64,000 nt of DNA from an uncultured Alphaproteobacteria bacterium (GCA_902577425.1 CACGZD010000001.1:638414-702413); one strand, 5' to 3'. Positions 17,558-37,563 are shown, numbered from the stretch's first letter. A program made the numbers and translations. Notes: generated by a model not told the origin, from the letters alone.

Positions 17558-18718
17558 ATGAAAAAAGAAACTGGCTACTGGTTGTTTAATTGTAATCCTG
17601 CAATATGGGATATTAAATCAAGGCTTCAAAGTAAAATTACAAAGGAAGATTGGGGAATTCCTAATAATAGAGTTAAACAATTTAAAAAAGGACAACTAGG
17701 ATTTATCAGAGTCGCGTTAGACACAAGACCTAAGAGACTTGTAAATAAAAAACTATTATCTGGTTTTTATGCTTTAGTAGAAATTGTAGACGAACCTTTT
17801 TATGGAAAAACAAAAAATCCTAAATTGTTTTTTAAGCCTACCAAATATACCCAAAAAGTTAAAAATGTTGAATTAAAAACACATTGGAGAGTTCCTATAA
17901 ATATTACAGAAAGTTTTTTAAACTCACCAATACTTATTTCAGATTTAAAAAATACTGAATTTAATTTTGATAAAGGAGTATTTCAACCAGGACAAGGAAT
18001 TTCAGTTAGACCAATAGAAAGAAAATCTTTTTTTGAACTTCTTAAAATGACTGGCAAAAAAGATAAATTATGGATTGAAGACATTAAGGAGGCGTTTAAT
18101 AGTCTTGGAAGAGAAGCGTCTTTAAAGGAAATTTATTCTGAAGTAAAAAAAATAAGAAAAAATATAAATCTCAATCAAGACTGGCAAGCAATTGTTCGAA
18201 GAGAAATAGGAGAAAATTCTTCAGATACAAAATATTGGAAAAAAAAATCTGATTTATTTTATAACGTATATGGACTTGGCGAAGGGTATTGGGGTTTAAG
18301 AAGTTTCGCAAATGATCCCAAAATAATTAAAAATTACAAAAAACAATTTGAAAAAAAAGTAAATAACAATTTAAAACTATCTGCTGCAGAACTTAAAAAA
18401 AGAGCAAACAAAAGTTTAAAAGTTAAAGTAAAAAATACTCAAACCAAATATTTTAATAGAGATGATTATGTTGAGGCTTATGTAAAAAAAATTGCAAAAG
18501 GTAAATGTGATTTATGTGAAAAAAATGCGCCTTTTAAAAAGAAAAAAACAAATGAGCCGTACCTAGAGTGTCATCATGTTAAGTGGCTTTCTAAAGGGGG
18601 AAAAGATATTATTGAAAATGCAGTAGCTCTTTGCCCCAATTGTCATAGAAAAATGCACTCATTAAGCCTTAACAAAGATATTAAAAAACTATTTGAAAAA
18701 ATAAATACTCGGCAATAA
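17558..18718 (+). CDS. EVE-domain + winged-helix + McrA-like HNH endonuclease (putative modification-dependent, type IV restriction enzyme)
   Basis: N-terminal YWLFNCNPAIWD...WGI...KGQLGF (EVE-like), central WIEDIKEAFNSLGREASLKEIY...GYWGLR (wHTH-like), and C-terminal CDLC...EPYLECHHVKWLSKGGKDIIENAVALCPNCHRKMH (McrA-type HNH). Confidence 0.8.
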   Translation: MKKETGYWLFNCNPAIWDIKSRLQSKITKEDWGIPNNRVKQFKKGQLGFIRVALDTRPKRLVNKKLLSGFYALVEIVDEPFYGKTKNPKLFFKPTKYTQKVKNVELKTHWRVPINITESFLNSPILISDLKNTEFNFDKGVFQPGQGISVRPIERKSFFELLKMTGKKDKLWIEDIKEAFNSLGREASLKEIYSEVKKIRKNINLNQDWQAIVRREIGENSSDTKYWKKKSDLFYNVYGLGEGYWGLRSFANDPKIIKNYKKQFEKKVNNNLKLSAAELKKRANKSLKVKVKNTQTKYFNRDDYVEAYVKKIAKGKCDLCEKNAPFKKKKTNEPYLECHHVKWLSKGGKDIIENAVALCPNCHRKMHSLSLNKDIKKLFEKINTRQ

Positions 18719-18729
18719 TTTTTTATATC

Positions 18730-18753
18730 CCAGTGCAAATTCGTAACACTTCA
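18730..18753. repeat. Orphan arm-type repeat between the HNH and YdjM-like genes
   Basis: GTGCAAATTCGTAACACTTCA (18733-53) is 18/21 identical to 19985-20005; no tRNA fragment follows it. Confidence 0.65.
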
Positions 18754-18754
18754 C

Positions 18755-19957
18755 TCAGAAATTCAAAGCAAAAATTAGATAGGGTGTGTCATAAGCTGGG
18801 CAATTAGTTACAATTTCAATTGATTTTTTTGCAAGTTTGTACTTACTAACTTCCCCATTACACATGCTTTTATTATCTTCTTTGTGATCAATTATTTTGA
18901 TTTTATTCTCTATAAAAGAAAAAACTGAATAAGTATTATGTCTAATATGAGCTGAACCTTGAGGTTGAGAGAAAGTAGAAATTAAATAATTATTTTCATT
19001 AAGTTTTAATAAAATTTCAGTATCCAATTGCTCTATCTCATTTTGCCAATCAATCTCATATATTGATTTATTAACAATATTATAAAGTTTAGACCTATCA
19101 AAGGATTTTAAGTCAATTTCTTGGTTATTGCTAAAGCAACAATCATAATTGTGAACCATATATGTTATAATTTTAGGATCAAAATTATTAATAGTTATGT
19201 TTTGGTTTGGACCAATCGTAGAATAATCTTTAAATTTTTGATAATCGTTAAATAATGTTACTCCATAATAAACGAAAAACAATACTATTAATAAAATTGA
19301 TAAATAAAAAATAAATTTAAAAAATTTGTAAACACCAGAAAAAAAACTATTTACTTTACGCTTTGCTATTTGAAGATTTTGAGTTGATTTTTCAGTGACA
19401 CTACTCAACTTTGGGAAATAGCTAAATATTTTTTTTTCACCAAAATAATCTACTGTTAATACTGCTATTGGTATCATTCGTATATCTTCTCCTTTAAGAA
19501 AGTATAAAAGAATACATATTCCCGCAGTAAGGTAGAAGTGATATGGATAAAACGAAAAACTATTTTCTTTAATTATTTTTAAGCAAAAATAACCACACGC
19601 TATTACATTTGCAAATATCCAAATAGGACTAAGCGGACCTATCCAACCAATAAATGGAACGCTGATTAAAGCATAACCTTTCCATGATTTGGGAAACAGA
19701 TCTGCAGATAGGTGGACCATAAATGCGAAATATATTGCAGCAATAATTAAAGGATATTGTTTTGAAGAGTATTTTTTTGAATAATAATCAATTAAAAAAG
19801 GTATAAAAATGCTGTGTGTTACAATTGAGCGATGAAGTAATAATTTTCCTGTAGCTAAATCCCAATCAGGTATACTTACAGTTACTAGTGCAATAAAAAA
19901 GAAAAATATACTTGAGCCAGTTTTTTTACCAAAGTTCTTTTCTAAATACTCAATCAT
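18755..19957 (-). CDS. YdjM-like membrane metal-dependent hydrolase with a C-terminal soluble domain
   Basis: IPDWD, HRSIVTHS and HLSADL motifs in a multi-TM N-terminal half, then a basic linker, one TM helix and a hydrophilic C-terminus. Confidence 0.65.
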   Translation of the reverse strand: MIEYLEKNFGKKTGSSIFFFFIALVTVSIPDWDLATGKLLLHRSIVTHSIFIPFLIDYYSKKYSSKQYPLIIAAIYFAFMVHLSADLFPKSWKGYALISVPFIGWIGPLSPIWIFANVIACGYFCLKIIKENSFSFYPYHFYLTAGICILLYFLKGEDIRMIPIAVLTVDYFGEKKIFSYFPKLSSVTEKSTQNLQIAKRKVNSFFSGVYKFFKFIFYLSILLIVLFFVYYGVTLFNDYQKFKDYSTIGPNQNITINNFDPKIITYMVHNYDCCFSNNQEIDLKSFDRSKLYNIVNKSIYEIDWQNEIEQLDTEILLKLNENNYLISTFSQPQGSAHIRHNTYSVFSFIENKIKIIDHKEDNKSMCNGEVSKYKLAKKSIEIVTNCPAYDTPYLIFALNF

Positions 19958-19981
19958 TTTATAAACTTATAACTAAACTTT

Positions 19982-20005
19982 GTGGTGCAAATTTGGAACA
20001 CTACA
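19982..20005. repeat. Tandem 11-bp arm-type repeat (upstream of Arg fragment 2)
   Basis: TGGTGCAAATT-TGGAACACTAC shows an 11-bp period. The second CAC (19999) is 86 bp before the anticodon loop at 20085. Confidence 0.68.
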
Positions 20006-20084
20006 GAATCATTTTTTTTCACTTAACGAATGATTTTTCCCGTAATTCCGTATATGTAATACAATCTGGTGCACGGGACACGGA

Positions 20085-20129
20085 CTACGGATCTGGAGGT
20101 TAGGAATTCGACTCTTCTCGGGCGCGCCA
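20085..20129 (+). pseudogene. 3' half of tRNA-Arg(ACG) (att-like fragment 2), decaying
   Basis: Same as 17383-17427 except that G53 is changed to A (AGGAA-TTCG), breaking the invariant G53-C61 pair; no 5' half. Confidence 0.9.
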
Positions 20130-20175
20130 TATAAACTGTCAAAAACTTAATTTTAAAAAATTATTAATTAAAAAA

Positions 20176-20197
20176 AAGTGTGCCGTTTGTGCACTTT
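20176..20197. repeat. Arm-type repeat after Arg fragment 2 (largely inverted)
   Basis: The reverse complement of 20176-94 is GTGCACAAACGGCACACTT, 16/19 identical to GCGCACATACGGCGCACTT. The following ~35 bp resemble those after 17495. Confidence 0.68.
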
Positions 20198-20243
20198 CGT
20201 ATTTAGAAATACTATTTTGGATTCAACATTCCTCTTAGAAGAA

Positions 20244-20990
20244 TTATTTTATTTTTTTATTAAAAACCACAGGCATTTTGCCTTTCCACTGAATCCAAAG
20301 GTTAGGTTGTTCAATGCACTCACACATAAAATGAGCGACGTTTGCTCGCGTAGTAGTAAGTCCATTAAAAATAGTTTGAGGAGGTGTCGTTACTACTTCA
20401 TAGTTCGAAATTTCAGCATTAATGAGTCCGTCTGGTCGGACCACTACCCATTCAATAAATTCATTTTCTGAACCAATGTTATCTCTCAAAAAAGCAGCGG
20501 AGGCTTCATTATCATAATGTGGTGGTATGAGGTTGCGTAACAGAGATAAAATAACTTTTTCGCTCGTGGTTACTCTCTCACCAGGATTGCGATTACCTAC
20601 GGTGTTCATTAATAAAAATTTTGTTTTATCTAGAGAATGAGTAGCCTTAATAGCTACACATAGACGTTTGACTGCTTCCAGAACAAGCGTTCTGGGTTTG
20701 CCAAATATTCCTTTAAAACTCATTGTGTGACCTAAGCAGGAAGCCACAGCAGCACAACCTTTTACGGCTTCCAACATTTGTTCGTCACTCAGATCAAGCA
20801 AACTTGCTTTTATGATTTTAAGCTTTGGATTTTCAAGAAGTTCTTGTGGAAATTTATCGAGTGACCGAACAATAATTCGAAGGTTATAGCCGCGGACAAG
20901 AAGCTGTTTTACAAGAGGGAAACCAGTATTTCCTGTGGCTCCAACCACTAAAACTGTTTTAAAATTTGAATTGGTTTTTTCGGTTGTCAT
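20244..20990 (-). CDS. NAD(P)H-binding atypical SDR (BVR-B/flavin reductase-like)
   Basis: VLVVGATGNTG, VASCLG, WVVVRPDGL and TTRANVAHFM motifs. Confidence 0.85.
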   Translation of the reverse strand: MTTEKTNSNFKTVLVVGATGNTGFPLVKQLLVRGYNLRIIVRSLDKFPQELLENPKLKIIKASLLDLSDEQMLEAVKGCAAVASCLGHTMSFKGIFGKPRTLVLEAVKRLCVAIKATHSLDKTKFLLMNTVGNRNPGERVTTSEKVILSLLRNLIPPHYDNEASAAFLRDNIGSENEFIEWVVVRPDGLINAEISNYEVVTTPPQTIFNGLTTTRANVAHFMCECIEQPNLWIQWKGKMPVVFNKKIK

Positions 20991-21006: not shown

Positions 21007-21609
21007 CTAACTCAAATTTATATTAAAACTTATTACAATTCTATCTTCATTTGATCTATTTACATCAACAGAGTGATGTAAGTAGCTAGGAAACAGTACT
21101 AACAAGCCTTCTTCAGGTTTTATTGAAACAATATTAGTATTTAAGTTATTAGGATTGTCTACTTTAGGGTGAAAATAAACTGGTTCACTTCTTGGATCAT
21201 GAAAAACAATATTGCCACAATTTTCAGGGGCTTTAACATAGTAGGCTGCACTTATATAATTGTTACTATGTATATGTCTTGCATTAGTGGCATCATTTCT
21301 ATTTATGATAGACCACATACTGGTAATTTTAACTTTTTGATTTTTTAAATCCCATCCCATATCTACAAGTGTTTCGTTTATGTAAGGGCCAATAGAGTTA
21401 ATATAATCTTTTATATTGTCAGCATTCATATCAAAGTCTTGAGAGTGCCATCCTTTTGAATTAGATTTTTGAACTCCTTTAGGATTTTGAGACTCTAAAC
21501 TTTTTATATATTCTAATATCTTTTTATTAACTTCTTGATGGTTTTTCACTCGTGAAACCCAAACAGGAGTTGAAAAAAAAAGTTTTAATTCTGACACTCT
21601 ATCTGTCAT
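21007..21609 (-). CDS. Putative 2OG-Fe(II) oxygenase, TIGR02466-like
   Basis: GWHS, HIHSNNYISAAYYV, IVFHDPR, GLLVLFPSYLHHSV and RIVISFN motifs. Confidence 0.85.
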   Translation of the reverse strand: MTDRVSELKLFFSTPVWVSRVKNHQEVNKKILEYIKSLESQNPKGVQKSNSKGWHSQDFDMNADNIKDYINSIGPYINETLVDMGWDLKNQKVKITSMWSIINRNDATNARHIHSNNYISAAYYVKAPENCGNIVFHDPRSEPVYFHPKVDNPNNLNTNIVSIKPEEGLLVLFPSYLHHSVDVNRSNEDRIVISFNINLS

Positions 21610-21667: not shown

Positions 21668-23638
21668 TTACTTAGTACTATCAATACAAACAATTGCATA
21701 AGGTAATAATTCCAGTTTAAGAGATCCATTAGCAGTTACGTGTTTTTTAAAGTTTTGAGCACGAAAAGTTTCAGGTGATTTCATTGCTTCCTCAATATTA
21801 CTTTCATTGAGATGTCGAATATTAACTGAACTACCTAAATTTTTTACTGTTAATTGTTGTACTTCTGAAACTAGATTAGCTAAAATAATTCTTATCTGAC
21901 CTTCTTTGTTTATAGCTAATCCATTTATTTTTAAAGGATTGCTTGATGAGGTTGAAATAATCTCTCCATCTGCAAATTCTCCTACATCAGCAAAAACATG
22001 ATAAAGAGGAAAAACAGATTCTTTAAATGAATAAAATTTTTCTGGAATAGGTGAACCATACTGAGTTTCCATTACACCTCGCCATCCTGTTGTTTCATAA
22101 TATGTCAAACTATGAGCCTCACTTTCACATAAATATTTTAAGCTGCCAACTGTCCAGCCTGCACCAAATAGAGACATCTGTCTCACATCTACTTGAGATG
22201 GAAGCTGGTTAGATTTCAATTCTGTTTCAGGAGAAGTAGCAAAGGGATTAAAACGCATTTTTAATGTAATAGGTGAAACCGCAATAAATTTATTATTAGA
22301 AAATTGACGAGCACTTTTTACTGTTTCCGGTTGAGCTGAAAGCGTTTCTATTAGTGAAAGATTATCAAAAGCATGTACCTGCGGATTGATAGAATAAGAT
22401 ACTAAATCCATATCTTCAAAAGAGGCAGTGGAACGATTCAGATCAGTAAATAAAACATTTGTACCAGAACCTATTTTGATATTATGATCATATTTTTGTA
22501 AATATTTTTTAGCTAATAATATCCATTTTTTAGAAGTTGTTATTTCTTCTTTATGGAAAATGAGCCAAGTTAAAATAGGAGGTTTAATCTTTTTTAATAA
22601 TTCAAGAAAAGCCATCAGTTCAGACTCAGCATCATTTGAAAGAAACAACGCTACTTCTAAATTAATTCCTAATTTGTGAGCATCCCTAGATGATTGTTCG
22701 AATTTTGCTTCATAATTAGGATCATATAAATTTAAATTAATTCTTTGATGAGATAGATTTAAAACTTTTAGTCGCTCCAACTCTTTTTCATTGAGTGGAT
22801 AATCATGACTAGCTTCATCCAATCCAATTTTTGGTAGTTTTCGTATTGCTTTTTCTTTTATTAAAAAAGTAAGCTCATCATTAGCTTTAAAAGATTTTAA
22901 TTCATGATCTTGATTTTTTAAAGTTAAAGAAAAGTTTTGAGAAATTTTTGTACCTGCTTTAACTTCTACTGGAGAAGGTTTGCTAAGTGGAGTACCGTAG
23001 GTTTTAAAAGAGGCATCTGTCCAGTTTCGTTGATCTTCCATTTCAAAATTTTCACCTTCAAAACGAACTTCTGCTAGTAAATTTTGTTTTACTTGATAGA
23101 CAAGTGCTCGCATATTAGAAAATGGTTCAACAGGTGAAGGCTTGTCATTAATGATAAGTTGCGGTGCTATAAATTTTGGAAATGTAGTTTGTTCAATTGT
23201 TCCATCCACATGTTCAATTTTACACTCTGTACTGGCATATTCCATTGGATGCAAAATACAAAAACCAATGCGGTTTCGCCAAAATGTGGAGCGCGCTTCA
23301 CCATCCATACTAAAGGTGATAGCACCATTAGCTTTACCAATAATTTTTCCTTGCCAGCAGAAATCAATGTCACTTTGAATATTATTGACAGTATATGTGA
23401 TAATAAAAGAATCATCTTTTATATCCATCTTCACATTTGATAAAACAGGTTTTACAGTGTCCCAATTACGATCACGCACAGCAACATAGATACGACGGAT
23501 TATTTCCTTATCACCATATTTAATATAGCGAAGATCTCCTGCTTCATAAAATAAATTTAATGGTCCAGCTTTAAGGTCTATCTGTTTGGGTAATGATTCA
23601 TCTTTTCCATAATATTGAACGTTTTTAGATAATTTCAT
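21668..23638 (-). CDS. apnL: D-apionate lactonase-like protein
   Basis: AGPL, GDLRYIKYG, VRDRNW, NRIGFCILHP and FEMEDQRNWTDASFKTY match my recollection of the ApnL family; adjacent to the ApsD-like gene. Confidence 0.7.
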   Translation of the reverse strand: MKLSKNVQYYGKDESLPKQIDLKAGPLNLFYEAGDLRYIKYGDKEIIRRIYVAVRDRNWDTVKPVLSNVKMDIKDDSFIITYTVNNIQSDIDFCWQGKIIGKANGAITFSMDGEARSTFWRNRIGFCILHPMEYASTECKIEHVDGTIEQTTFPKFIAPQLIINDKPSPVEPFSNMRALVYQVKQNLLAEVRFEGENFEMEDQRNWTDASFKTYGTPLSKPSPVEVKAGTKISQNFSLTLKNQDHELKSFKANDELTFLIKEKAIRKLPKIGLDEASHDYPLNEKELERLKVLNLSHQRINLNLYDPNYEAKFEQSSRDAHKLGINLEVALFLSNDAESELMAFLELLKKIKPPILTWLIFHKEEITTSKKWILLAKKYLQKYDHNIKIGSGTNVLFTDLNRSTASFEDMDLVSYSINPQVHAFDNLSLIETLSAQPETVKSARQFSNNKFIAVSPITLKMRFNPFATSPETELKSNQLPSQVDVRQMSLFGAGWTVGSLKYLCESEAHSLTYYETTGWRGVMETQYGSPIPEKFYSFKESVFPLYHVFADVGEFADGEIISTSSSNPLKINGLAINKEGQIRIILANLVSEVQQLTVKNLGSSVNIRHLNESNIEEAMKSPETFRAQNFKKHVTANGSLKLELLPYAIVCIDSTK

Positions 23639-23658
23639 TTTTTTGTAACTTTAAGCAT

Positions 23659-24696
23659 CTAATTGCCCATTGTTACAAGTGAACCACCTTTTGCAGCTGA
23701 TTGATAAGCTGCCTCTACTAGTTTCAATGTTTTTAAATTATCATCAACTGAGGTTTCAGGTTTAAGATTTTGTGGAACTGTGTCTATCCAATGACGACAT
23801 GTATTTTTAACGCTATCTTGAACTACATGCCAAGGTTTTTCACACCAGTCATCAACACTTGGTTCAGCATTTATTGTTTCAACTTTTTCACCAGATCTTT
23901 TTATCATTTGGTACCCTGCTCCTAGCGTTACTGCACCATTTGTTCCTTCAACAGAGACAAGAGTTTCAGGGAAAAGATCTGGGACTTGCTTAGATCCATA
24001 AGTACATTCAACAATTGCAGTCCGCTCTTTTGAAAATCCTAACATCATTGTAGCCATATCTTCACCAGCAATATCTGAACGAGTTTTTTGAGTTCGGCAA
24101 CATATAGAAGTAGCTTCTCCAAATAAAAAACGTGCGGTATCTAGAACATGAACTCCCAAGTCCATTAGCACTAGTTGATCTACTTCCTTAAGATAAGGTT
24201 GATTTGTATAAATATCGAAAGAAGTACGAAAACTTATCTTACAAAAAAGATGTTGACCAATGTTATCATTTGCAATGAAATTCTTTAGATCTCTTATAGG
24301 TTGTTGAAACCTGAAATTTTCATGAACCATCATGGGTGTTTTAGTTGTTTCAGCAAGATCAACAATTTTAGTTGCTTCTTTTAATGAGGGAGCCATAGGT
24401 TTTTGAATAATGGCAGAAATATTTAGAGAGGCTGCTAGTTTTGCAAGATGATAATGGGATGGCGCAGTTGTGACAATATCAACAACATCAGGTCGAACTT
24501 TTTTTAACATCAATTCAGCATCAGTGAAATATGGAGTGCCTTTCGAAATATTACTTGCATTAATAGCCTTCTCTTCATCTAGATCACAAACGCCAACTAG
24601 ATCTACGTCTTTAAAGTTGCTCCATGAAAGAATATGATTTGTTGCAAAAAATCCACAACCTATAACAGCTACTTTACTTTTATTTTTATTTATCAT
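23659..24696 (-). CDS. apsD: D-apiose dehydrogenase-like Gfo/Idh/MocA oxidoreductase
   Basis: IGCGFFA, QKP, HENFRFQ, SFR..FD.Y..QPYL, DLGVHVLD, FPETL, PWH and DNLKT..LVEAAY, as in ApsD. Confidence 0.72.
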   Translation of the reverse strand: MINKNKSKVAVIGCGFFATNHILSWSNFKDVDLVGVCDLDEEKAINASNISKGTPYFTDAELMLKKVRPDVVDIVTTAPSHYHLAKLAASLNISAIIQKPMAPSLKEATKIVDLAETTKTPMMVHENFRFQQPIRDLKNFIANDNIGQHLFCKISFRTSFDIYTNQPYLKEVDQLVLMDLGVHVLDTARFLFGEATSICCRTQKTRSDIAGEDMATMMLGFSKERTAIVECTYGSKQVPDLFPETLVSVEGTNGAVTLGAGYQMIKRSGEKVETINAEPSVDDWCEKPWHVVQDSVKNTCRHWIDTVPQNLKPETSVDDNLKTLKLVEAAYQSAAKGGSLVTMGN

Positions 24697-24744
24697 TTTT
24701 ATTTTATATATAACCTAATCATATTTTTATATTTTCTTATCCAA

Positions 24745-25563
24745 TTATGATTTAGCATCTCCATCTGCAGGATCCAAACTAGTAGCTGGTATCCGATCAC
24801 ATCCAACTTCTTCTAAGGACTGATGCAGAGATCGCATTAATAGTCCACTATCTGGTCCTAAAGCTAACATTCGAAAACCTTGATCACGTCGTTCAGTTAA
24901 ATTTTTAACACTAGTAGATATAACACCACAATGTTTTCCAGCAGCGTTAATTATGTCTTTTAATTCTAATATTTGTTCGGCTACACCAGGACCTTCCCAT
25001 TGTCCTCGATATCCTGCACTTGCTGAGAAATCAGCTGGACCAAAGAAAAATAGATCTATTCCATCTACTTTACACATGTTGGCTACATTAGGAATGGCAT
25101 TGATACTTTCAATCAAAGGTATAACTAGTACATTTTCATTTGCTTCATTAGTATGTTCACTTAAACACTGACCCCATACTGTTGCTCGTTCTCCTCCTAT
25201 TCCTCGTCGTCCTTCAGGTGGATAATGGCAATCACGAACGGCCTCTTCTACTTCTTCTACCTTTTCCATCCAAGGAACTATTATTCCATCAGCTCCAATA
25301 TCAAGAGCACGTTTTGACAAGGAAGTACTTCGTTCAGCAATACGGACAAGAACAACAGTATCACTTCGTAAAGCTGCCCTAATATGGGAATTTATGTCTC
25401 TCCAATCCAAATGACCATGTTCTGCATCAATTACAACCCAATCTAAACCGAGAGAAACGGCCATTTCAGTAATTGACGCTGATTCAAGAGTAACCCATAA
25501 TCCGTATATAGGCTCATTTTTTTTAAGCTTTTGCCTTAGTTTTTGAAGAGCTTTAACTTTCAT
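24745..25563 (-). CDS. HpcH/HpaI class II aldolase
   Basis: DWVVIDAEHG, ALDIGADGIIVP, YPPEGRRG, PLIES and FFGPADFSAS motifs. Confidence 0.9.
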   Translation of the reverse strand: MKVKALQKLRQKLKKNEPIYGLWVTLESASITEMAVSLGLDWVVIDAEHGHLDWRDINSHIRAALRSDTVVLVRIAERSTSLSKRALDIGADGIIVPWMEKVEEVEEAVRDCHYPPEGRRGIGGERATVWGQCLSEHTNEANENVLVIPLIESINAIPNVANMCKVDGIDLFFFGPADFSASAGYRGQWEGPGVAEQILELKDIINAAGKHCGVISTSVKNLTERRDQGFRMLALGPDSGLLMRSLHQSLEEVGCDRIPATSLDPADGDAKS

Positions 25564-25721
25564 TTTTTTTCAATTTATACATTATAGTCATTCTAATTAA
25601 AAACTATTAGCACTTGATAATAATTTTTAATACGATTATCATTCTTTTGATATGACAAATATGAGTATAATTTTATCATATTTATTTATCAAAACAAATT
25701 TTTAATACGTAGGAGGGAATA

Positions 25722-26756
25722 ATGGTATTAAGAAAAATAATAGCTGCTGGGTTTTTGAGTGTAGCAACACTTTTTAGTTTGTCTATATCAAGCATAGCTT
25801 CAGCCGGTCAGATAGTAGTTGGCTACGCTGCACCTTCTCTTGATGGTGCACAGAAGCAAATATTTGATGGCTTTAGGATTCCAGCAGAAGCAAAAGGTTG
25901 GAAAGTAGTTTCTGTAACATCTGGAGGAGATGCTCAAAAACAAATTAATGACGTTAATGACTTTATAACTCAAGGAGTTGATGCAATTGTAGCGGTTCCT
26001 GATGATAGTGCTGGAATTTGTGTTGCAGTAGCAGCAGCGGAAGAAGCTGGAATACCTTTTTATACAATTGATAGATCTGCAGTTGGTTGCCAAATGGAAA
26101 TGACTGTCCTAGCTGATAACAATCTAGGCGGAAATCAATCTGGTAATGCTGTTGTTGCGCATTTAACAAAAAAATATGGAGAACCTAAAGGAACAGTTTT
26201 GCATATTACTGGTAACTTAGCACAAAACGTTGCACAGTTAAGAAAAGCAGGATTTGATGAAATTATAAATCAACATTCTAACATTGAACACATTACCAAA
26301 GATGGTGAATGGCAAGTTGAAAAAGGAGTTCAAATAGTTCGTGACGTTTTATCAGTTCGCGATGTTGATGCAATTTATTTACATTCTGACTGTGCTTACT
26401 CTGAGAGTACTGTTCAAACTCTAAAAGAGATGGATCAATATGCACCTAGAGGCGAAGATGGTCATATCTTTATTGCAGCAATCGATGGTTGTAGCTCTGC
26501 TTTAAATTTAATCCGAGAAGGATCAACTGACCAAGCTTCAGGTCAACCAATTCCAGACTTTGGAAGTATGGTTGTTGTATATATTGAAAAGAAATTGAAT
26601 GGTGAACCAATTGAGGAAGGTCAAGTTGTTCAAGAAGGAGCATTATGGTCTCCAGCTCAACTTGTAATGACTGATGTTGGCTTTCAGCTTTTCTTAAGTA
26701 CAACTGATATTTCTATAGACAATGTGGACAATCCTGGACTTTGGGGTAACCAATAG
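25722..26756 (+). CDS. Sugar ABC transporter substrate-binding protein (RbsB-like)
   Basis: Signal peptide; QINDVNDFITQGVDAI, AGIPFYTIDR and ADNNLGG motifs; AGGAGG RBS. Confidence 0.9.
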   Translation: MVLRKIIAAGFLSVATLFSLSISSIASAGQIVVGYAAPSLDGAQKQIFDGFRIPAEAKGWKVVSVTSGGDAQKQINDVNDFITQGVDAIVAVPDDSAGICVAVAAAEEAGIPFYTIDRSAVGCQMEMTVLADNNLGGNQSGNAVVAHLTKKYGEPKGTVLHITGNLAQNVAQLRKAGFDEIINQHSNIEHITKDGEWQVEKGVQIVRDVLSVRDVDAIYLHSDCAYSESTVQTLKEMDQYAPRGEDGHIFIAAIDGCSSALNLIREGSTDQASGQPIPDFGSMVVVYIEKKLNGEPIEEGQVVQEGALWSPAQLVMTDVGFQLFLSTTDISIDNVDNPGLWGNQ

Positions 26757-26799
26757 TTGGATTGAACACTACGTTTGTTGATGTTATAAAAAAATAAAT

Positions 26800-26830
26800 T
26801 TTGGAGGGGTTAATTTTTATCCCCTCCAAA
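26800..26830 (+). terminator. Stem-loop between the SBP and ATPase genes (terminator or mRNA-stabilising hairpin)
   Basis: TTTGGAGGGG-N11-CCCCTCCAAA, a perfect 10-bp stem. Confidence 0.7.
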
Positions 26831-26890
26831 CTCGTAATTCAAAGATTATAAATATAATATAAGTATGATAAAAAGATTTTGGTTGGAATT

Positions 26891-27631
26891 ATGAAAATTC
26901 TTGAATTAAAAAATATTTCGAAAAGCTTTGGCGCAATCCATGCTTTAGAAAATGTAGATTTAGATATTACTCCAGGAGAAGCGCTTGGTCTAATGGGTGA
27001 TAATGGAGCTGGCAAATCAACACTTGTGAAAATTGTTGCTGGAAATTTTTCTCCTACAAATGGAGAAATTTTTGTTGCAGGAAAAAAAACGTCAATTTCT
27101 AATCCACTTGAAGCTAGAAATCATGGTATCGAAATCGTGTATCAAGATCTTAAATTGTGTAATAATTTAACAGCCTCTGCGAATGTTTTTTTAGGTCGGG
27201 AAATAAATTCAGGTTTTGGTGTTTTTTCACGGCTAAAACACACTGCTATGAATGATCGAGCTGCAGAATTATTTGGAGAATTACAATCCGAAACACGTCC
27301 AAATGATGTAGTAGAACGAATGTCTGGCGGCCAACGACAAGCAGTCGCGCTTGCACGAACACGTTTGTCTGATCCAAAGATTGTTTTGTTAGATGAGCCT
27401 ACTGCAGCAATTTCAATTCGCCAAGTAGCAGGAATTCTTGCAAGAATTAAACAACTTAAAGAAACTGGTCATGCTGTAATTTTGGTAAGTCACCGAATGA
27501 TGGATGTTTTTGAAGTATGTGATCGTGTCGCCGTTCTACGAAGAGGGAATAAAATTGCTGATAAACCAATCGCTAACACAAACCCAGAAGAGGTTACTGG
27601 ATTAATAACCGGAGCTTTAGAAAAAGCATGA
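26891..27631 (+). CDS. Sugar ABC transporter ATP-binding protein (single NBD)
   Basis: GDNGAGKST, MSGGQRQ and LLDEPT motifs; ATG at 26891 preferred over TTG 26879. Confidence 0.92.
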   Translation: MKILELKNISKSFGAIHALENVDLDITPGEALGLMGDNGAGKSTLVKIVAGNFSPTNGEIFVAGKKTSISNPLEARNHGIEIVYQDLKLCNNLTASANVFLGREINSGFGVFSRLKHTAMNDRAAELFGELQSETRPNDVVERMSGGQRQAVALARTRLSDPKIVLLDEPTAAISIRQVAGILARIKQLKETGHAVILVSHRMMDVFEVCDRVAVLRRGNKIADKPIANTNPEEVTGLITGALEKA

Positions 27632-27652
27632 ATTATTCATTAGAGGAAAGTT

Positions 27653-28687
27653 ATGTTTTCATATAATCGTTTATTATTTCTGATTGATCATTTAATTTGG
27701 GGTATTTTAGTACTTGTATTTGTGTTTTTCATATTTCAATCTGAATATTTTCTTACTGAAAGAAATATTTCTAATATTTTAACAGCAGCAGCAGTATTAG
27801 GTGTCTTGGTAGCGGGTCAAACTTTTGTTTTAATAAGTGGCAACTTCGATTTATCGACAGAGTCCACATTAGGATTGGCAGCTTTAGTTGGTATCTGGTT
27901 GATTGTACCTGCAGGTCCGACAACGTTTGGTGGTGGAATTTATATGAATCCCTACCTATCAATTATTTGTAGCTTATCAATGGGAGCTTTAATTGGTTAT
28001 ATTATTGGTTGCTTAATAACATATGGTAACATGCATAATTTCATCGTTACTCTAGCAGCTCTTCTTGTTATTAGAGGTTTAATGATGGCTTTTACAGAGG
28101 GTGCACCAGTAAGTGGTTTTAATAATCCAAGTGCAGATGTTTTCTACTGGCTTGGTCATGAAAAAGCTTTTAAAGTCCCAGGTCTTGGTAAGATTTCCGT
28201 TGCTGTTCTTGCAACAGGATTAGTTTATATTGTTTGTCATTTAATTTTAAAACATCACAAATTTGGTCGAGAACTATATGCAATTGGTGGTAACCGTGAT
28301 GCTGCAGAAGCATTAGGTATAAATGTCAATAGAAGAATTAGGCAAGTGTATATGCTTAGTGGACTACTAGCTGCCCTAGGTGGTTGGATGTTAGCAGGAA
28401 GAGTAGTATCCATACAAAGCAATCTTGGTGAAACTTTTATATTTACTGTTTTTGCTGGGGCTGTCATTGGTGGTGTAAGTCTTCAAGGCGGTAGAGGAAC
28501 AATGTTAGGTGCTTTAGGTGGAGTTTTATTACTTTCTACAATTGATCGGGGATTAAATTTAATGCAAGTTTCTGTTTTTTGGATAAAAGTCATTCAAGGA
28601 TCAGTAATTCTAGTAGCTATGCTTATTGACGCACAACGTGTCCGTCTTAAAGAACTTAGTATCATTGCAACCAGTGAAAAAAAATAA
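27653..28687 (+). CDS. Sugar ABC transporter permease (RbsC-like)
   Basis: GNFDLS, FIVTL, FGRELYAIGGNRDAAEALGI and AVIGGVSLQGGRG motifs. Confidence 0.92.
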   Translation: MFSYNRLLFLIDHLIWGILVLVFVFFIFQSEYFLTERNISNILTAAAVLGVLVAGQTFVLISGNFDLSTESTLGLAALVGIWLIVPAGPTTFGGGIYMNPYLSIICSLSMGALIGYIIGCLITYGNMHNFIVTLAALLVIRGLMMAFTEGAPVSGFNNPSADVFYWLGHEKAFKVPGLGKISVAVLATGLVYIVCHLILKHHKFGRELYAIGGNRDAAEALGINVNRRIRQVYMLSGLLAALGGWMLAGRVVSIQSNLGETFIFTVFAGAVIGGVSLQGGRGTMLGALGGVLLLSTIDRGLNLMQVSVFWIKVIQGSVILVAMLIDAQRVRLKELSIIATSEKK

Positions 28688-28705: not shown

Positions 28706-28795
28706 GGAGAGATGTGAGAGCGGTTTAATCAGCACGCTTGGAAAGCGTGTATAGTGGAAACACTATCGAGGGTTCGAATCCCTCTCTCTCCGCCA
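28706..28795 (+). tRNA. tRNA-Ser(GGA), intact, 90 nt
   Basis: Acceptor GGAGAGA/TCTCTCC, D stem TGA/TCA, anticodon arm CACGC-TTGGAAA-GCGTG, long variable arm TAGTG-GAAA-CACTA, T arm GAGGG-TTCGAAT-CCCTC, and encoded GCCA. Confidence 0.96.
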
Positions 28796-28839
28796 TAAAT
28801 TAGGATTTTCCTTTAACGATTTTTCAACAAAAAAGTGTT

Positions 28840-28861
28840 TCGACGCACATACGGCGCACTT
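28840..28861. repeat. Tandem 11-bp arm-type repeat, GGCG type
   Basis: TCGACGCACATACGGCGCACTT is 21/22 identical to 30760-81; the second CAC is 62 bp after the tRNA CCA. Confidence 0.85.
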
Positions 28862-28899
28862 ACGAGCCTATTTTTCATCTTAATCCCGTATCGGTATTG

Positions 28900-28918
28900 T
28901 GGTAGGATAATCGTGATG
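28900..28918 (+). promoter_or_regulatory. Putative extended -10 promoter with leaderless start
   Basis: TG-G-TAGGAT-N7-ATG, 18/19 identical to 43015-43033; no Shine-Dalgarno sequence. Confidence 0.5.
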
Positions 28919-29344
28919 AAAAAATTATTTTTTTTAATAGCTTTATTATTTTTGTTTTCTTCATACGCTAACGCTAAAGTGGTAAAACTTTTATGTGAGC
29001 CAAGAGAATACTACATTTATGATCACAATCAATCATCTGGAACTTATACTAAGCGTTTTGAACCTAATATTTTGGATTTAATTATTTCCATAAGTGAAAA
29101 AAAATTAACCATGTATTATGATGATGCAGAAGATAGTTTTAGTAGAACAAAAATTAATGCCGACCCAACATCATTTCTTATGAAATTTCAGAATGAAAAA
29201 TATGGAGTAGTGGTTGGCTTTCTTTTTCATAGAAAATCAGGAAGATTAAATAAGTTTAAAAGTGGAGGTCAATATGGAGGTGATAATAATATTTTTTCTG
29301 AGACATATTATAATTGTGAAAAATATTTAGAGCCCGTTTTTTAA
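28916..29344 (+). CDS. Secreted hypothetical protein
   Basis: ATG 28916 begins a clear signal peptide, MKKLFFLIALLFLFSSYANA. The track's upstream GTG start would run through the arm repeat. Confidence 0.7.
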   Translation: MKKLFFLIALLFLFSSYANAKVVKLLCEPREYYIYDHNQSSGTYTKRFEPNILDLIISISEKKLTMYYDDAEDSFSRTKINADPTSFLMKFQNEKYGVVVGFLFHRKSGRLNKFKSGGQYGGDNNIFSETYYNCEKYLEPVF

Positions 29345-29351: not shown

Positions 29352-29981
29352 ATGACCAATAAAGTTAAATTAAAATATGACTATATAATGAAATTAGAAT
29401 ACGTTGGTGAAGTCAAGGACGGCTTGCCCCATGGATATGGTACTTTCAATATATATGGAGAATTATCATTTAAAGAATTAAGTAAGACACAAAATTATAA
29501 AGAAACAAAGAAGGGTGAATACGAATATTTATCTCATCATAAATCTACCACACATTATCTTCAGGCACTTATAGAGGTGTCTTTAACAAAAAGTAAGCCA
29601 AAGGATTTTGATAAAGATTGTTTGGAAATTTCTATTAAAGGGGGCTTTAAAGAAGGTCTTTGGGAGGGACGTTTTTTTAGGATTGATTATGATTTTTTAA
29701 ATGGAAAAGAAAGTGACAATGAAGAAACTGAAGATTTTGAAGTATATTCTGAAGCATCGATTTTTGAAAATAATATTATGGTTGAAGGAAGAATAGATTT
29801 TGATGATGGTTATTATTTTGGTGAAGTCATATTGAATGAATCCTATAATAAAGATTTTGAAAAAGCCACTGGAGATCTTTATTTACCTCATGGAGAAGGT
29901 GATTACATTTATCATGATCCGAATAAAGGCAAATGGTTTAGAGGAATTTGGGAAAATGGAAAATTAAAAAAAACAAATTAA
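29352..29981 (+). CDS. Acidic protein with MORN-like repeats
   Basis: YVGEVKDGLPHGYGTF, YFGEV...PHGEGDY and WFRGIWENGK motifs. Confidence 0.65.
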   Translation: MTNKVKLKYDYIMKLEYVGEVKDGLPHGYGTFNIYGELSFKELSKTQNYKETKKGEYEYLSHHKSTTHYLQALIEVSLTKSKPKDFDKDCLEISIKGGFKEGLWEGRFFRIDYDFLNGKESDNEETEDFEVYSEASIFENNIMVEGRIDFDDGYYFGEVILNESYNKDFEKATGDLYLPHGEGDYIYHDPNKGKWFRGIWENGKLKKTN

Positions 29982-30542
29982 ATGACTAAAAAAGAAAAAA
30001 TAAAAACAAAGGATTGGACTTACAATGGTGAGGTTAAAAATGGGGAACCTCATGGAGATGGAATAATGAAATTTAAAAATGGAGAAAAGTTAGAGGGTTG
30101 TTGGAAAAATGGTAACCCTATAAAAGCATATAAATATATTCTTTATTCAAATGAAAAAAAAGATATGAGATATGAATACGAAGGTACGTTAGGTTGGGGA
30201 AAAGGCGGCGTATTAAATGGAAAAGGAATTTTTAAAATTATAGATAAAGTTTCAAAACCCAAAGGTTATACTTATCTAAAAGGAAACTTTGTAGGAGCCT
30301 TATTGGAAGGCAAGGGAATAAGAATTTTGTATTATGATAAAAACTATAGCCGAGCAATAAATCTTTACAAAGGTGAATTCAAGAACGGTTTTCAACATGG
30401 AAAAGGTATAGAGTGGTTTTACCCAAATAAATATTTCTCTGAAGGAATATTTAAAAATAATAAATTTAAAGGTTCAAAACAAAAACCACTTACAAAAAAG
30501 GTTTTTAAATTAATATTAGATGCAAATAATATTAACAAATAA
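29982..30542 (+). CDS. Basic MORN-repeat protein
   Basis: YNGEVKNGEPHGDGIM, LEGCWKNG, YEGT..NGKGIF and YKGEFKNGFQHGKGI motifs; TAAATG-coupled to the upstream gene. Confidence 0.75.
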   Translation: MTKKEKIKTKDWTYNGEVKNGEPHGDGIMKFKNGEKLEGCWKNGNPIKAYKYILYSNEKKDMRYEYEGTLGWGKGGVLNGKGIFKIIDKVSKPKGYTYLKGNFVGALLEGKGIRILYYDKNYSRAINLYKGEFKNGFQHGKGIEWFYPNKYFSEGIFKNNKFKGSKQKPLTKKVFKLILDANNINK

Positions 30543-30862: not shown

Positions 30863-32185
30863 CTAGTTTTTAATTTTTTTTGCTGCTTTTGCATATTCTA
30901 TATTTCTTCCGCCATAACGTCTTAGACGTATGTTGCATTGTTCGGCATGACCAAGAAAACCTTCTAAATATGAAAGTCTAGAGCCATACTCACCTATTAA
31001 GGTCGCAGCTTCATCTGTTAAAACTTTTTGATATGTGTGTGTTTTGATAAATTTACCCACCCATAATCCGCCAGTATAACGTCCGGCTTTTTTAGTAGGT
31101 AGGGTATGGTTTGTTCCAATCACTTTGTCACCATTTGCAACATTGGTTCTTGGGCCAAGAAATAATGCACCGTAAGATTTCATATTTTCCAAAAACCAAT
31201 CATCTTTTTTTGTCATCACTTGCACATGTTCCGAGGCAATTTCATTTGCTTTATCAAGCATTTCTTCGTACGAATCACAAAGTATAACTGCACCGTAATC
31301 TCTCCAACTTATACTTGCTGTTTCTTTAGTTGGTAAAATTTGAAGAATTCTTTCAATCTCTAATAGAGTAGACTCTGCTAAATTTTTTGAATTTGTAATT
31401 AGAACTGCGGGTGAATTATATCCATGTTCAGCTTGCCCTAAAAGATCAGTAGCACATAATTCTCCATCTACAGTATTATCTGCAATAACCATTGTTTCCG
31501 TTGGGCCAGCAAATAAATCAATCCCCACTTTTCCAAATAATTGTCTTTTAGCTTCAGCAACATAAGCGTTACCAGGACCAACAAGCATATCAACTGGTTT
31601 TATTGTTTCAGTTCCTATTGCCATTGCACCTATACCTTGCATACCACCTAATACATATATCTCATGGGCTCCACCTAAATGCATAGCCGCAATTACTGCT
31701 GGATTAGGTTTGCTTTGAAATGGAGATGTAGTAGCTACTATTCTAGGGACATCTGCAACAGATGCTGTTACTACAGACATGTGTGCGGATGCTACCATAG
31801 GAAATTTTCCTGCAGGAACATAACAGCCAACTGATTGTACTGGAATATTTTTGTGACCTAATATCACTCCAGGTAGTGTTTCAACTTCTAATTCCTTTAA
31901 TGTTGCAAGTTGTGCTTCTGCAAATTGTCTTATTTGTTTTTGCGCAAATTTGATGTCCTCAATGTCATCTTCAGATACCTTACTAATTAAATTTTGAATC
32001 TCGGAATCTGTTAACCTAAAACTTGTTGGGGAATAATTATCAAATTTCTCTGACAATTCTCTAACATATTGGTCACCTTGTTGTTCTATTTTTTTTAATG
32101 TTTCTTCAACAATGTTTTTAACTTTATCATTCTCAGCTGATCGTTCTTGTTCAGCAATTCCTTTTTTCAAATATTGAATAGTCAT
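30863..32185 (-). CDS. HisD-family dehydrogenase, sulfopropanediol 3-dehydrogenase (HpsN)-like
   Basis: VGCYVPAGK, GPGNAYVAEAKR, AGPTE, DLLGQAEH, SEH and GTNHTLP motifs. The MTIQYLKKG N-terminus and GRYTGGLWVGKF are HpsN-clade-like; there are no his genes nearby. Confidence 0.75.
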   Translation of the reverse strand: MTIQYLKKGIAEQERSAENDKVKNIVEETLKKIEQQGDQYVRELSEKFDNYSPTSFRLTDSEIQNLISKVSEDDIEDIKFAQKQIRQFAEAQLATLKELEVETLPGVILGHKNIPVQSVGCYVPAGKFPMVASAHMSVVTASVADVPRIVATTSPFQSKPNPAVIAAMHLGGAHEIYVLGGMQGIGAMAIGTETIKPVDMLVGPGNAYVAEAKRQLFGKVGIDLFAGPTETMVIADNTVDGELCATDLLGQAEHGYNSPAVLITNSKNLAESTLLEIERILQILPTKETASISWRDYGAVILCDSYEEMLDKANEIASEHVQVMTKKDDWFLENMKSYGALFLGPRTNVANGDKVIGTNHTLPTKKAGRYTGGLWVGKFIKTHTYQKVLTDEAATLIGEYGSRLSYLEGFLGHAEQCNIRLRRYGGRNIEYAKAAKKIKN

Positions 32186-32188
32186 AAG

Positions 32189-33283
32189 TTATTTTTTATG
32201 TATTAAATCAAATATATCAACGTCTATCTGGTTAAGTATGTGTGCAATATCAATGGGCACCCAGTTTTCTCTTATTAATCCTTCGTGATGTAAATAAAAA
32301 TCCATAACTCTCATTGTTACTGATTTGCCTGTGCCTTCATATCCAAGCCATTCTTTTGAACCATGCTTACACTCTATGCTGTGCCAACCTGATGTCATCG
32401 AAAAATTGCCATCTGCAATTTCAATATAGTGTCCTATTTTCCAATAGTCTCTTTCCTTAAATGTTAGTCGAAATGGTAATTGATGATGATCAACATATCC
32501 TTTTAGTCCTCTTGCAGTACCTATACCACTAGGACCATACCACATCATTTTAGGATGCCAGAAATCTTTTTGTGCATGATTTAATAATTTCTCTCTTATA
32601 TATTCATAATTAGATCCAGGATCAGTTTCAGGTTTGATGTTTAAACTTCTTTGCATTGTTAAAGCTTGCTCCATAGATTTAATTGATAATTCATTATCCA
32701 TATTTTCAAATGTTGTACCATCACCGGTTATTGGTCCTGGCCACATACCTTCCGCGCCTAGAGATTTATTTACTGGCCAAAATCCAGCCTGACGAATAAA
32801 ATCTAAAGTATCAATTAAAATGTGAGATTGAATAATTTTATTATCTTTGATTTCATGCGCTTCACATATTCTAAGATGAATTGTTTTGGCATGAGCAGGA
32901 ACATTAAGCCATGGATTTACAAAAGTCCCTGTTAAATGAGCTACTGTAGAAACAAAAATTTTATCTTGAAAAGATCCTCCAAGAATTAGATTATCCCTTC
33001 TTTCAAGATCAGGAAATGCACTTATAAGTGGTTTCCATAATTTTTCTGTTATTTTAGAAATTCCTTTTAAGTCATTAAGTGGATGGAATGCTCTTATTAC
33101 CGCATCATCATGATACGCATCACTAATATTTTTATTAATATTTTCTAAATTGGATTCAGCTATATTTTTTAGAAGAATTCTAATTTTTTTTTTATTTGCT
33201 AAATTTATCTTTGGATCTAAATTAATGACTTCAGTACTTCCCTCTTTTTTTATTCCAGTATTAAAATTTTCAATGTTTGTCAT
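32189..33283 (-). CDS. Tandem SnoaL-like / ester cyclase (NTF2-fold) protein
   Basis: FPDLERRD, WYGPSGIGTARG and RVMDFY...IRENWV motifs; paralogous to 40892-41965. Confidence 0.75.
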   Translation of the reverse strand: MTNIENFNTGIKKEGSTEVINLDPKINLANKKKIRILLKNIAESNLENINKNISDAYHDDAVIRAFHPLNDLKGISKITEKLWKPLISAFPDLERRDNLILGGSFQDKIFVSTVAHLTGTFVNPWLNVPAHAKTIHLRICEAHEIKDNKIIQSHILIDTLDFIRQAGFWPVNKSLGAEGMWPGPITGDGTTFENMDNELSIKSMEQALTMQRSLNIKPETDPGSNYEYIREKLLNHAQKDFWHPKMMWYGPSGIGTARGLKGYVDHHQLPFRLTFKERDYWKIGHYIEIADGNFSMTSGWHSIECKHGSKEWLGYEGTGKSVTMRVMDFYLHHEGLIRENWVPIDIAHILNQIDVDIFDLIHKK

Positions 33284-33332
33284 AATTATTTAAATTTTAG
33301 TTACTCACAATTAGGCAAATTTTAAATTGATT

Positions 33333-33370
33333 TATTCAATATTTTGAATATTATTCATTAAAAATGAATA
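33333..33370. promoter_or_regulatory. Candidate operator array in a divergent promoter
   Basis: TATTCA/TGAATA half-sites at 33333, 33345, 33352 and 33365, including the palindrome TGAATA-T-TATTCA; a similar array lies at 37526-37563. Confidence 0.4.
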
Positions 33371-33389
33371 AAATATAATTTTTCCTAAA

Positions 33390-34358: not shown

Positions 34359-34370
34359 TTTATTAAAAAT

Positions 34371-35342: not shown

Positions 35343-35355
35343 GGATAGATAAACA

Positions 35356-36486: not shown

Positions 36487-36499
36487 ATTGTTAATTTTT

Positions 36500-37501: not shown

Positions 37502-37525
37502 TTATGCCTTTATCCACCGAAATAT

Positions 37526-37563
37526 TATTCATTACATTGCATATTTATTCAAAACAATGCAAT
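37526..37563. promoter_or_regulatory. Candidate operator array between lacI and the SBP gene
   Basis: TATTCA (37526), TGCATA (37538), TATTCA (37546) and TGCAAT (37558); spacing parallels 33333-33370. Confidence 0.4.

Follow-up and report, generated by a model that had tools for sequence, protein, structure and literature searches.

The window analysed here, a 64,000-nucleotide stretch from an uncultured Alphaproteobacteria bacterium (GCA_902577425.1, CACGZD010000001.1:638414-702413; ~30% GC), contains a six-gene cluster at 21668-28687 in which an ATP-binding cassette (ABC) import operon and a catabolic operon diverge from a shared intergenic region. We see about an even chance that this cluster is a cut-down version of a marine catabolic island of wide distribution, serving D-apiose or an aldose much like it, and that it would run an oxidative variant independent of ApnO and based on an aldolase. 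The cluster is laid out as follows.

21668-23638, minus strand: ApnL-clade lactonase homologue, 656 aa, the last gene of the catabolic operon
23659-24696, minus strand: predicted ApsD-like Gfo/Idh/MocA sugar 1-dehydrogenase, 345 aa
24697-24761: junction, marked by a break in DNA homology, where relatives hold a ~1.1-kb D-2-hydroxyacid dehydrogenase gene
24745-25563, minus strand: predicted HpcH/HpaI class II (metal-dependent) 2-oxo-acid aldolase, 272 aa, the first gene of the operon
25564-25721: divergent intergenic region with AT-rich TGATAA/TTATCA repeats, from an alignment of eight loci
25722-26756, plus strand: periplasmic sugar-binding substrate-binding protein (SBP), CUT2-type, Peripla_BP_4 by domain match, with a signal peptide
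26879-27631, plus strand: ABC ATPase with a single nucleotide-binding domain (NBD), 250 aa
27653-28687, plus strand: RbsC-like ABC permease, BPD_transp_2 by domain match

All six genes are intact and lie where the original prediction had placed them, with the transport and catabolic operons facing apart; that prediction also saw no regulator in the cluster, and the nearest one is indeed a LacI/RbsR-like gene at 36500-37501 that flanks another ABC system. The known oxidative D-apiose pathway, against which the cluster has to be read, comprises ApsD, ApnL, ApnO, OiaK and either the RuBisCO-like proteins (RLPs) OiaX/OiaT or OiaC (Carter et al. 2018, via PMC12994016 and PMC11747546).

The lactonase and the dehydrogenase had been taken for homologues of ApnL and ApsD, and both assignments hold. 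The sole curated match of the lactonase is NCBIfam NF049900, 'D-apionate lactonase ApnL' (E 4e-95, 319.5 bits), and the protein is 61% identical to an ApnL (locus L003) that scores level with it on the same model (325 bits) and is flanked by a Gfo gene and a mutarotase on one side and by ApnO, OiaK and an RLP (526 bits on the OiaX model) on the other. In a neighbour-joining tree of 85 sequences the marine lactonase clade is sister to L003 and nests among sequences neighbouring ApnO, RLP, OiaK, RhaT-type symporters and AP_endonuc_2 barrels. The window lactonase is just ~28-29% identical to rhizobial ApnL; its second ApnL clade, of ~655-aa proteins, has 5763 database matches, and 597 of 600 candidate metagenomic stretches were confirmed. 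A Pfam scan of the window lactonase itself gave no match, and near-identical homologues carry the precomputed Pfam domains Apionate_lact_N/M/C. We found no solved structure for the family; an AlphaFold (AF2) model (pLDDT 72) has a beta-sandwich, a TIM barrel and a second beta-sandwich, and in Foldseek it resembles glycoside hydrolases at ~10% identity, a likeness at fold level only. In one close relative (L005, 7268-7666) the ApnL alignment splits into two overlapping parts close to the 3' end of the gene, owing to either a frameshift or a faulty assembly.

The dehydrogenase matches PDB 5UHW over its full length (266 bits, E 5e-78, ~44% identity), and the rhizobial Gfo gene adjoining ApnL on R. 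johnstonii pRL12 scores 652 bits against the same structure. Its best plasmid homologues (43-44% identical, from Shinella and Martelella) lie inside RLP/OiaK/ApnO/ApnL clusters, its identity to Gfo proteins of canonical apiose clusters is 37-44%, and it stands directly upstream of ApnL, as in rhizobia. The annotated order on rhizobial plasmids is an OiaX-named RLP, a four-carbon acid sugar kinase, a 'phosphogluconate dehydrogenase C-terminal domain' (PGDH_C) protein, SBP, DUF2291, ATPase, permease, Gfo/Idh/MocA and a ~600-aa 'hypothetical protein', the last of which scores 899-1061 bits on the ApnL model. Could the Gfo/Idh/MocA gene of the window be ApnO instead? We ruled this out, since the rhizobial PGDH_C protein beside OiaK matches PDB 5T57 (437 bits), a structure named D-apionate oxidoisomerase ApnO (10.1101/2020.08.24.261826); ApnO is therefore not the Gfo protein, and the sole Gfo gene adjoining ApnL is ApsD. 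The dehydrogenase-lactonase pair of the window is thus homologous to ApsD and ApnL, with which it probably also agrees in function.

The SBP and permease fit CUT2 importers, the best PDB matches of the SBP being ribose-type SBPs, and the ATPase, with its one NBD, aligns with no more than the N-terminal half of the ~500-aa RbsA/AraG/XylG models. An SBP encoded near Gfo-ApnL at locus L080 is 45-47% identical to that of the window, and a plasmid search with the window SBP returned at best 32% identity and no useful context.

The lower half of the known pathway is a different matter. Searches by tblastn with reference proteins, and by hidden Markov models (HMMs) built from neighbours and run against all six-frame open reading frames, found no match in the 64-kb window to ApnO, OiaK, an RLP, an AP_endonuc_2 barrel, transketolase, a 2-hydroxyacid dehydrogenase (2-Hacid_dh), Ldh_2 or an enolase-superfamily dehydratase. 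For ApnO, three tblastn references and a 15-sequence HMM yielded only a 15.9-bit Rossmann match to an NAD_binding_2 gene described below. ApnO, the DUF1537 kinase OiaK, the RuBisCO-like OiaX/OiaT, the AP_endonuc_2 barrel and transketolase were equally without a match in 14 marine loci (the window, L001, L004, L005, L009-L012, L039 and L089-L093, with flanks of up to 10 kb), so that the absence of recognisable ApnO and Oia genes, first proposed for the window, extends to all of them. Outside the marine loci, ApnO lies near ApnL in 19 of ~75 loci and an RLP in six. A frequent non-marine order (L020, L023, L024, L026 and others) is a short-chain dehydrogenase/reductase (SDR), ApnL, ApnO, a RhaT-like symporter and an AP_endonuc_2 barrel, with the SDR in place of the Gfo-type dehydrogenase and the proton symporter in place of the ABC system. 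Our literature search, in which just seven papers mentioned apionate, found no description of apiose breakdown through HpcH or another aldolase; a study of SAR11 SBPs does no more than cite Carter et al. The canonical enzymes are listed in PMC11747546, which also reports that a marine Rhodobacteraceae isolate grows on D-apiose, and organisms without the described apiose enzymes may take alternative routes (2026 preprint).

What the cluster has in place of these enzymes is an aldolase. It matches Pfam PF03328 (HpcH_HpaI) at 114.6 bits (cut-off 25), and in an alignment with YfaU and HpaI it keeps H49, R74, the metal-binding Glu in 'LIES' and the Asp in 'GPAD'. Its scores lie under all named equivalog cut-offs (HpaI, TIGR02311, 175/369; GarL 148/407; RhmA 126/441 bits), and by this profile the protein is a distinct HpcH/HpaI subfamily.

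The arrangement is not due to chance, for 13 further independent marine sequences (contigs, single-amplified genomes (SAGs) and metagenome-assembled genomes (MAGs)) have their genes in the same order. The region was found across many marine metagenomes from at least ten studies, and one exact HpcH sequence of the common form occurs in 231 blocks of the contig collection; the exact lactonase sequence of the window was not found in the contig index, and a single-protein scan of genome contigs returned three close relatives only. The common marine form (L001, L009, L039, L089-L093) consists of NAD_binding_2, permease, ATPase and SBP genes divergent from HpcH, a D-2-hydroxyacid dehydrogenase (5305-6354 in L089), Gfo and ApnL, with an additional Ldh_2 dehydrogenase in L001 and L012 and an enolase-superfamily gene at the cluster end in L009 and L092. 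All marine copies of the operon begin with HpcH. The cluster is not confined to the window, which holds a less complete form.

In the window, as in L004 and L005, no 2-hydroxyacid dehydrogenase lies between the aldolase and ApsD. DNA homology to L009/L001 ends at 24761 and restarts at 24739/24698, leaving ~1175 bp of L009, with its 2-Hacid_dh gene, unmatched; tblastn, DNA alignment and HMMs found no remnant of that gene at the junction. Alteration of the aldolase there is limited to its non-catalytic C-terminal tail, which is shortened (nearly all of the best 120 aldolase matches have 280-281 aa, versus 272 in the window) and which differs among the window, L004 and L005, each having a tail of its own. 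Low dN/dS (nonsynonymous to synonymous substitution) ratios among the three dehydrogenase-less copies (HpcH 0.08-0.15, Gfo 0.12-0.13, ApnL 0.12-0.15) and the lack of stop codons indicate that the reduced cluster is not decaying. Relative to L004 (7995-8906) the aldolase has a dS of 0.79 and 81-82% amino acid identity, against a dS of 0.06-0.23 and 94-100% identity for the flanking genes, which suggests local recombination of this allele. Since the two forms are sister groups, the tree does not decide between loss in the short form and gain in the long one; we favour loss because the same 2-hydroxyacid dehydrogenase accompanies ApnL and HpcH in other phyla.

The aldolase module also turns up outside the marine clade. 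Genes for 2-Hacid_dh and HpcH directly adjoin ApnL in contigs from unrelated lineages, with a GC content of 54-71% (L032, L040, L047, L067, L085), in the order ApnL, 2-Hacid_dh, HpcH, with overlapping genes, in L047 and 2-Hacid_dh, HpcH, ApnL in L085 and L040. The non-marine dehydrogenase is orthologous to the marine one (47-52% identical), and the non-marine HpcH is of another subfamily (24-31% identical). Looser associations occur as well, with HpcH and an enolase-superfamily gene in L018 and the dehydrogenase alone beside ApnL in L002. The ApnL sequences that carry the module are scattered over the tree, indicating that it joined ApnL repeatedly, and such repeated joining favours a functional link over chance adjacency. 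At one of these loci (L032, 2975-11947) the order is 2-Hacid_dh, PGDH_C (ApnO-like), HpcH and DUF1537 kinase, then GntR, a second PGDH_C gene, an AP_endonuc_2 barrel, ApnL and an epimerase. The aldolase there occupies the slot expected for an RLP, and the locus is a good candidate for work on the alternative route.

The closest relatives of the window are SAG AG-414-E06 (L004), which has 94-100% protein identity and the same gene order, and MAG HIMB59-LRMED-201 (L005); the host is accordingly a HIMB59/AEGEAN-169-type alphaproteobacterium, in keeping with the streamlined planktonic bacterium originally proposed. Contigs from a single marine metatranscriptome span the genes for SBP, ATPase, permease, HpcH and Gfo, with coverage highest over the SBP. 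Contig depth, which is only a rough guide and a poor measure of expression, is 64-449 for the SBP (25806-26873), ~10-13 for ATPase and permease, 2-28 for the aldolase and ~1 for the dehydrogenase. Such a pattern is typical of strongly expressed binding proteins in oligotrophs. The chromosomal site of the cluster varies, being next to rpoD-dnaG in L089/L090, sarcosine oxidase in L091 and lepA in the window, and it therefore behaves as a movable island. Three features outside the six genes bear on its extent.

21007-21609, minus strand: 2-oxoglutarate (2OG)-Fe(II) oxygenase, TIGR02466, 58 bp downstream of the lactonase, of uncertain membership in the cluster
28706-28795, plus strand: tRNA-Ser(GGA), the right boundary of the cluster (ARAGORN)
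50199-51071, plus strand: tartronate-semialdehyde-reductase-like dehydrogenase (NAD_binding_2), 75% identical to the one found after the permease in most marine copies

Most marine relatives have a tartronate-semialdehyde-reductase-like gene where the window has the tRNA. This NAD_binding_2 gene, nearest to tartronate semialdehyde reductases, is absent after the permease in the window, and its homologue 22 kb away may be a partner enzyme encoded at a separate site. The homologue sits in an apparent three-gene operon (49419-52369) with an HpaH/MhpD-like 2-oxo-enoate hydratase (TIGR02312, 82 bits) and a DRL_cat (DXR-like) oxidoreductase. We considered the hydratase (49419-50168) and the DRL-like oxidoreductase (51077-52369) as missing steps and dropped both, neither having a counterpart in any related locus. 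At the tRNA, right after the permease stop codon, contig depth jumps 50-100-fold in metagenomes and the metatranscriptome.

Gene content, homology, conservation, purifying selection and in-situ transcription are what the data show, and from these we infer both the substrate and each step of the chemistry. The SBP-dependent ABC system would import the sugar, the ApsD-like Gfo/Idh/MocA enzyme would oxidise C1 with NAD(P)+ to give a lactone, and the ApnL-clade enzyme would hydrolyse the lactone to the aldonate (D-apionate). Rather than being passed to ApnO and the Oia enzymes, the aldonate would then be turned into a 2-oxo acid for cleavage by the HpcH class II aldolase, which would need a 4-hydroxy-2-oxo acid as its substrate. 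The original prediction proposed such an aldol cleavage of an apionate-derived 2-oxo acid, or else the use of a related branched sugar; the idea of aldol cleavage gains indirect support from the ApnL/2-Hacid_dh/HpcH operons of unrelated lineages, whereas the step that makes the 2-oxo acid is not encoded in the window cluster. Because the window encodes neither a dehydrogenase nor a dehydratase for that step, the supplier would lie elsewhere in the genome.

How might the 2-oxo acid be made? In most relatives the D-specific 2-hydroxyacid dehydrogenase would probably do so, an enzyme class that fits because D-apionate is a 2R-hydroxy acid. Oxidation at C2 would give 2-dehydro-apionate, whose retro-aldol cleavage could only give formaldehyde and 2-oxo-tetronate; a second cleavage, of 2-oxo-tetronate, would give hydroxypyruvate, and the tartronate-semialdehyde-reductase-like enzyme (or the 2-hydroxyacid dehydrogenase, or Ldh_2) would reduce this to glycerate. 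The OtnI-like barrel and DUF1537 kinase of L032 would be consistent with 2-oxo-tetronate entering the known tetronate pathway. Along a second route, an enolase-superfamily enzyme (as in L009 and L092) or the housekeeping IlvD would dehydrate the aldonate to a 2-keto-3-deoxy acid, from which the aldolase would yield formaldehyde and 4-hydroxy-2-oxobutanoate, and then pyruvate. The most specific version of the scheme, which we put forward only as a speculation, holds that an abundant open-ocean lineage oxidises D-apionate at C2 with a D-2-hydroxyacid dehydrogenase, that HpcH strips the hydroxymethyl branch or branches as formaldehyde, feeding C1 oxidation and glycerate/tetronate metabolism, and that the ApnL/2-Hacid_dh/HpcH module has been assembled repeatedly in unrelated phyla; in its full form we think it unlikely.

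Several observations weigh against an aldolase-based apiose pathway. The lactonase, at 319.5 bits, falls under the NF049900 equivalog cut-off of 750, a shortfall that we attribute to a model seed restricted to rhizobial sequences (1061, 899 bits). The window Gfo protein is just 33-36% identical to Gfo proteins beside same-clade ApnL in other phyla. The SBP matches 5IBQ, which we take to be an apiose complex, at just E 6e-10 and 41.8 bits, and shares ~25% identity with the SBP of the rhizobial cluster; on these comparisons it is not an orthologue of the characterised apiose-binding proteins. No enzyme of the window makes a 2-oxo acid from the aldonate, which leaves the aldolase without an encoded supplier. 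That HpcH was kept after loss of 2-Hacid_dh makes oxidation at C2 doubtful as the only route, and suggests either redundancy or a 2-hydroxyacid dehydrogenase that acts after the aldolase, for example as a hydroxypyruvate reductase. The enolase-superfamily dehydratase of some relatives (L009, L092) would suit a classical 2-keto-3-deoxy route. Sugar pathways seldom release formaldehyde, and to our knowledge apiose is not a major open-ocean sugar.

The most serious alternative is a Dahms/GarL-type non-phosphorylative pathway for another, probably linear, pentose, deoxy-sugar or uronate, with ApsD and ApnL homologues of shifted specificity: the sugar would pass through lactone and aldonate to a 2-keto-3-deoxy acid (the dehydratase being encoded elsewhere), HpcH would cleave this to pyruvate and glycolaldehyde or tartronate semialdehyde, and NAD_binding_2 or 2-Hacid_dh would reduce the aldehyde. 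Such a scheme is described in general terms in PMC12994016, and several points speak for it: the aldolase is nearest to the HpaI/GarL/RhmA 2-keto-3-deoxy-acid aldolases, its NAD_binding_2 partner is tartronate-semialdehyde-reductase-like (GarR-like), enolase-superfamily genes stand at the cluster end (L009, L092) or near ApnL (L018, L044, L059, L077), the SBP is like ribose-type binders, and the AEGEAN-169 literature annotates a 'fructose' ABC transporter (PMC10308909) that is probably the system of the window. Yet neither the window nor most marine copies have a dehydratase, the lactonase shares 61% identity with a member of a canonical apiose/RLP cluster and nests among ApnO-associated sequences, and the closest Gfo homologues of known context are all ApsD; we grant this explanation a real but clearly minor chance.

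There are two further explanations. The canonical pathway might operate with apnO and oia genes elsewhere in the genome, with HpcH either accessory to it or a neighbour without connection. The window spans no more than 64 kb of the genome, and L032 and L045 do combine HpcH or 2-Hacid_dh with ApnO and an OiaK-like kinase; we nonetheless hold this to be improbable, given that none of the 14 marine loci has ApnO, OiaK or an RLP within their flanks, although these genes are normally clustered with ApnL, and that HpcH heads the operon in every marine copy. Still less probable, in our judgement, is that the pathway is truncated, in that, once the dehydrogenase was lost, the cell would profit only from importing the sugar and oxidising it to the acid (as a source of NADH or to detoxify it), with the aldolase acting on another 2-oxo acid. 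The lack of 2-Hacid_dh and adjacent NAD_binding_2 genes in the window cluster speaks for this, as does the recombination signature of the HpcH allele relative to L004 (dS 0.79 versus 0.06-0.23 in flanking genes), but purifying selection acts on all three catabolic genes, at comparable dN/dS, in the three dehydrogenase-less genomes, and their operon structure is kept.

Regulation and surroundings of the cluster offer further observations. TGATAA/TTATCA-type repeats in the divergent intergenic region (for example TGATAAT, a ~14-nt spacer and ATTATCA) are kept in seven of eight aligned loci, the spacer of L001 being divergent, and they overlap promoter-like hexamers on both strands. Judged by this pattern, the repeats may serve as the operator of a regulator whose gene lies in another place, or may simply be the promoters; promoter and terminator scans gave matches no commoner than in shuffled sequence. 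No terminator-like site was found between the lactonase and 2OG oxygenase genes, and the oxygenase also follows ApnL in L004 and L005 and is not found in the 2-Hacid_dh-bearing copies. Between lepA and the oxygenase gene lies an insert (17558-20990) without counterpart in L004, encoding three proteins, one with an HNH-endonuclease domain (17558-18718), a 400-aa membrane protein that matches no family (18755-19957) and one that is NmrA-like and NAD(P)-binding (20244-20990). On the other side, a small secreted or lipoprotein-like open reading frame (28835-29344) precedes two small tandem proteins (29352-30542) whose glycine-rich repeats are MORN-like by eye, the first of them without an NCBIfam match.

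A second unusual cluster at 30863-42750 encodes a histidinol-dehydrogenase-family protein, three two-domain SnoaL-like proteins, a bicupin, a MetE-like protein, the RbsR-like LacI regulator, a CUT1 ABC system (SBP_bac_1 and two permeases) and an SDR of the glucose-1-dehydrogenase subfamily. This SDR scores 222 bits against an HMM of ApnL-neighbouring SDRs from other phyla, a kind of score that is common among classical SDRs.

If an aldolase-based apiose pathway is indeed encoded here, it would add a further lower branch to apiose catabolism, in which the hydroxymethyl branch is removed by aldol cleavage rather than processed by oxidoisomerisation and RuBisCO-like enzymes or transketolase, and genes met very often in marine metagenomes would gain a function. 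AEGEAN-169/HIMB59 bacteria are set apart from SAR11 by a broader use of sugars (PMC10308909). The cluster raises the question of which dissolved sugar they take up in the open ocean, far from any apiose-rich plants. The dehydrogenase-less variant offers a natural experiment on which steps are essential.

The cluster can be compared with several known systems. With the oxidative D-apiose pathway it shares an SBP-dependent ABC importer, an ApsD homologue directly upstream of an ApnL homologue, and a lactonase clade that is used elsewhere with ApnO, OiaK and an RLP. It differs in that the window has no ApnO (PGDH_C/5T57), DUF1537 kinase, RuBisCO-like protein or AP_endonuc_2 barrel; in its HpcH aldolase, joined in relatives by a D-2-hydroxyacid dehydrogenase and a tartronate-semialdehyde-reductase-like enzyme; and in its importer, whose SBP is of another subfamily and whose ATPase has one NBD rather than two fused ones. 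With the GarL/GarR (glucarate/galactarate), Dahms and L-rhamnose LRA pathways it shares an HpcH class II aldolase with a tartronate semialdehyde reductase and a dehydrogenase-lactonase-aldolase logic; unlike them, it lacks a sugar-acid dehydratase in the window and most marine copies, and its upper enzymes are ApsD and ApnL rather than Xyl, Rha or Udh types.

The L-threonate/D-erythronate (2-oxo-tetronate) pathway, reportedly the work of Zhang et al. in 2016, is said to run through LtnD, OtnI, OtnK and OtnC. Partly described in PMC12994016, it too starts by C2 oxidation of a small polyhydroxy acid, and 2-oxo-tetronate is the predicted product of 2-dehydro-apionate cleavage; by contrast, the window is without OtnI, OtnK and OtnC, and the link would come from chemistry and one metagenomic locus (L032). 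A last likeness is to valine and pantothenate synthesis (IlvC, IlvD, PanB), D-apionate being 2,3-dihydroxyisovalerate with both methyls hydroxylated: ApnO, which has a weak KARI_N match, mirrors a reversed ketol-acid reductoisomerase (IlvC), and cleavage of a hydroxymethyl group off the quaternary C3 would mirror a reversed PanB reaction. This is analogy only, with no IlvD or PanB homology found in the cluster.

In conclusion, by homology the upper half of the cluster matches the oxidative apiose pathway, with a lactonase under the curated cut-off, and the lower half does not. The cluster is widespread and ecologically relevant, and it probably encodes an undescribed route, in which the enzymes that open apiose catabolism elsewhere would be coupled to an aldolase of the kind used in other sugar-acid pathways.

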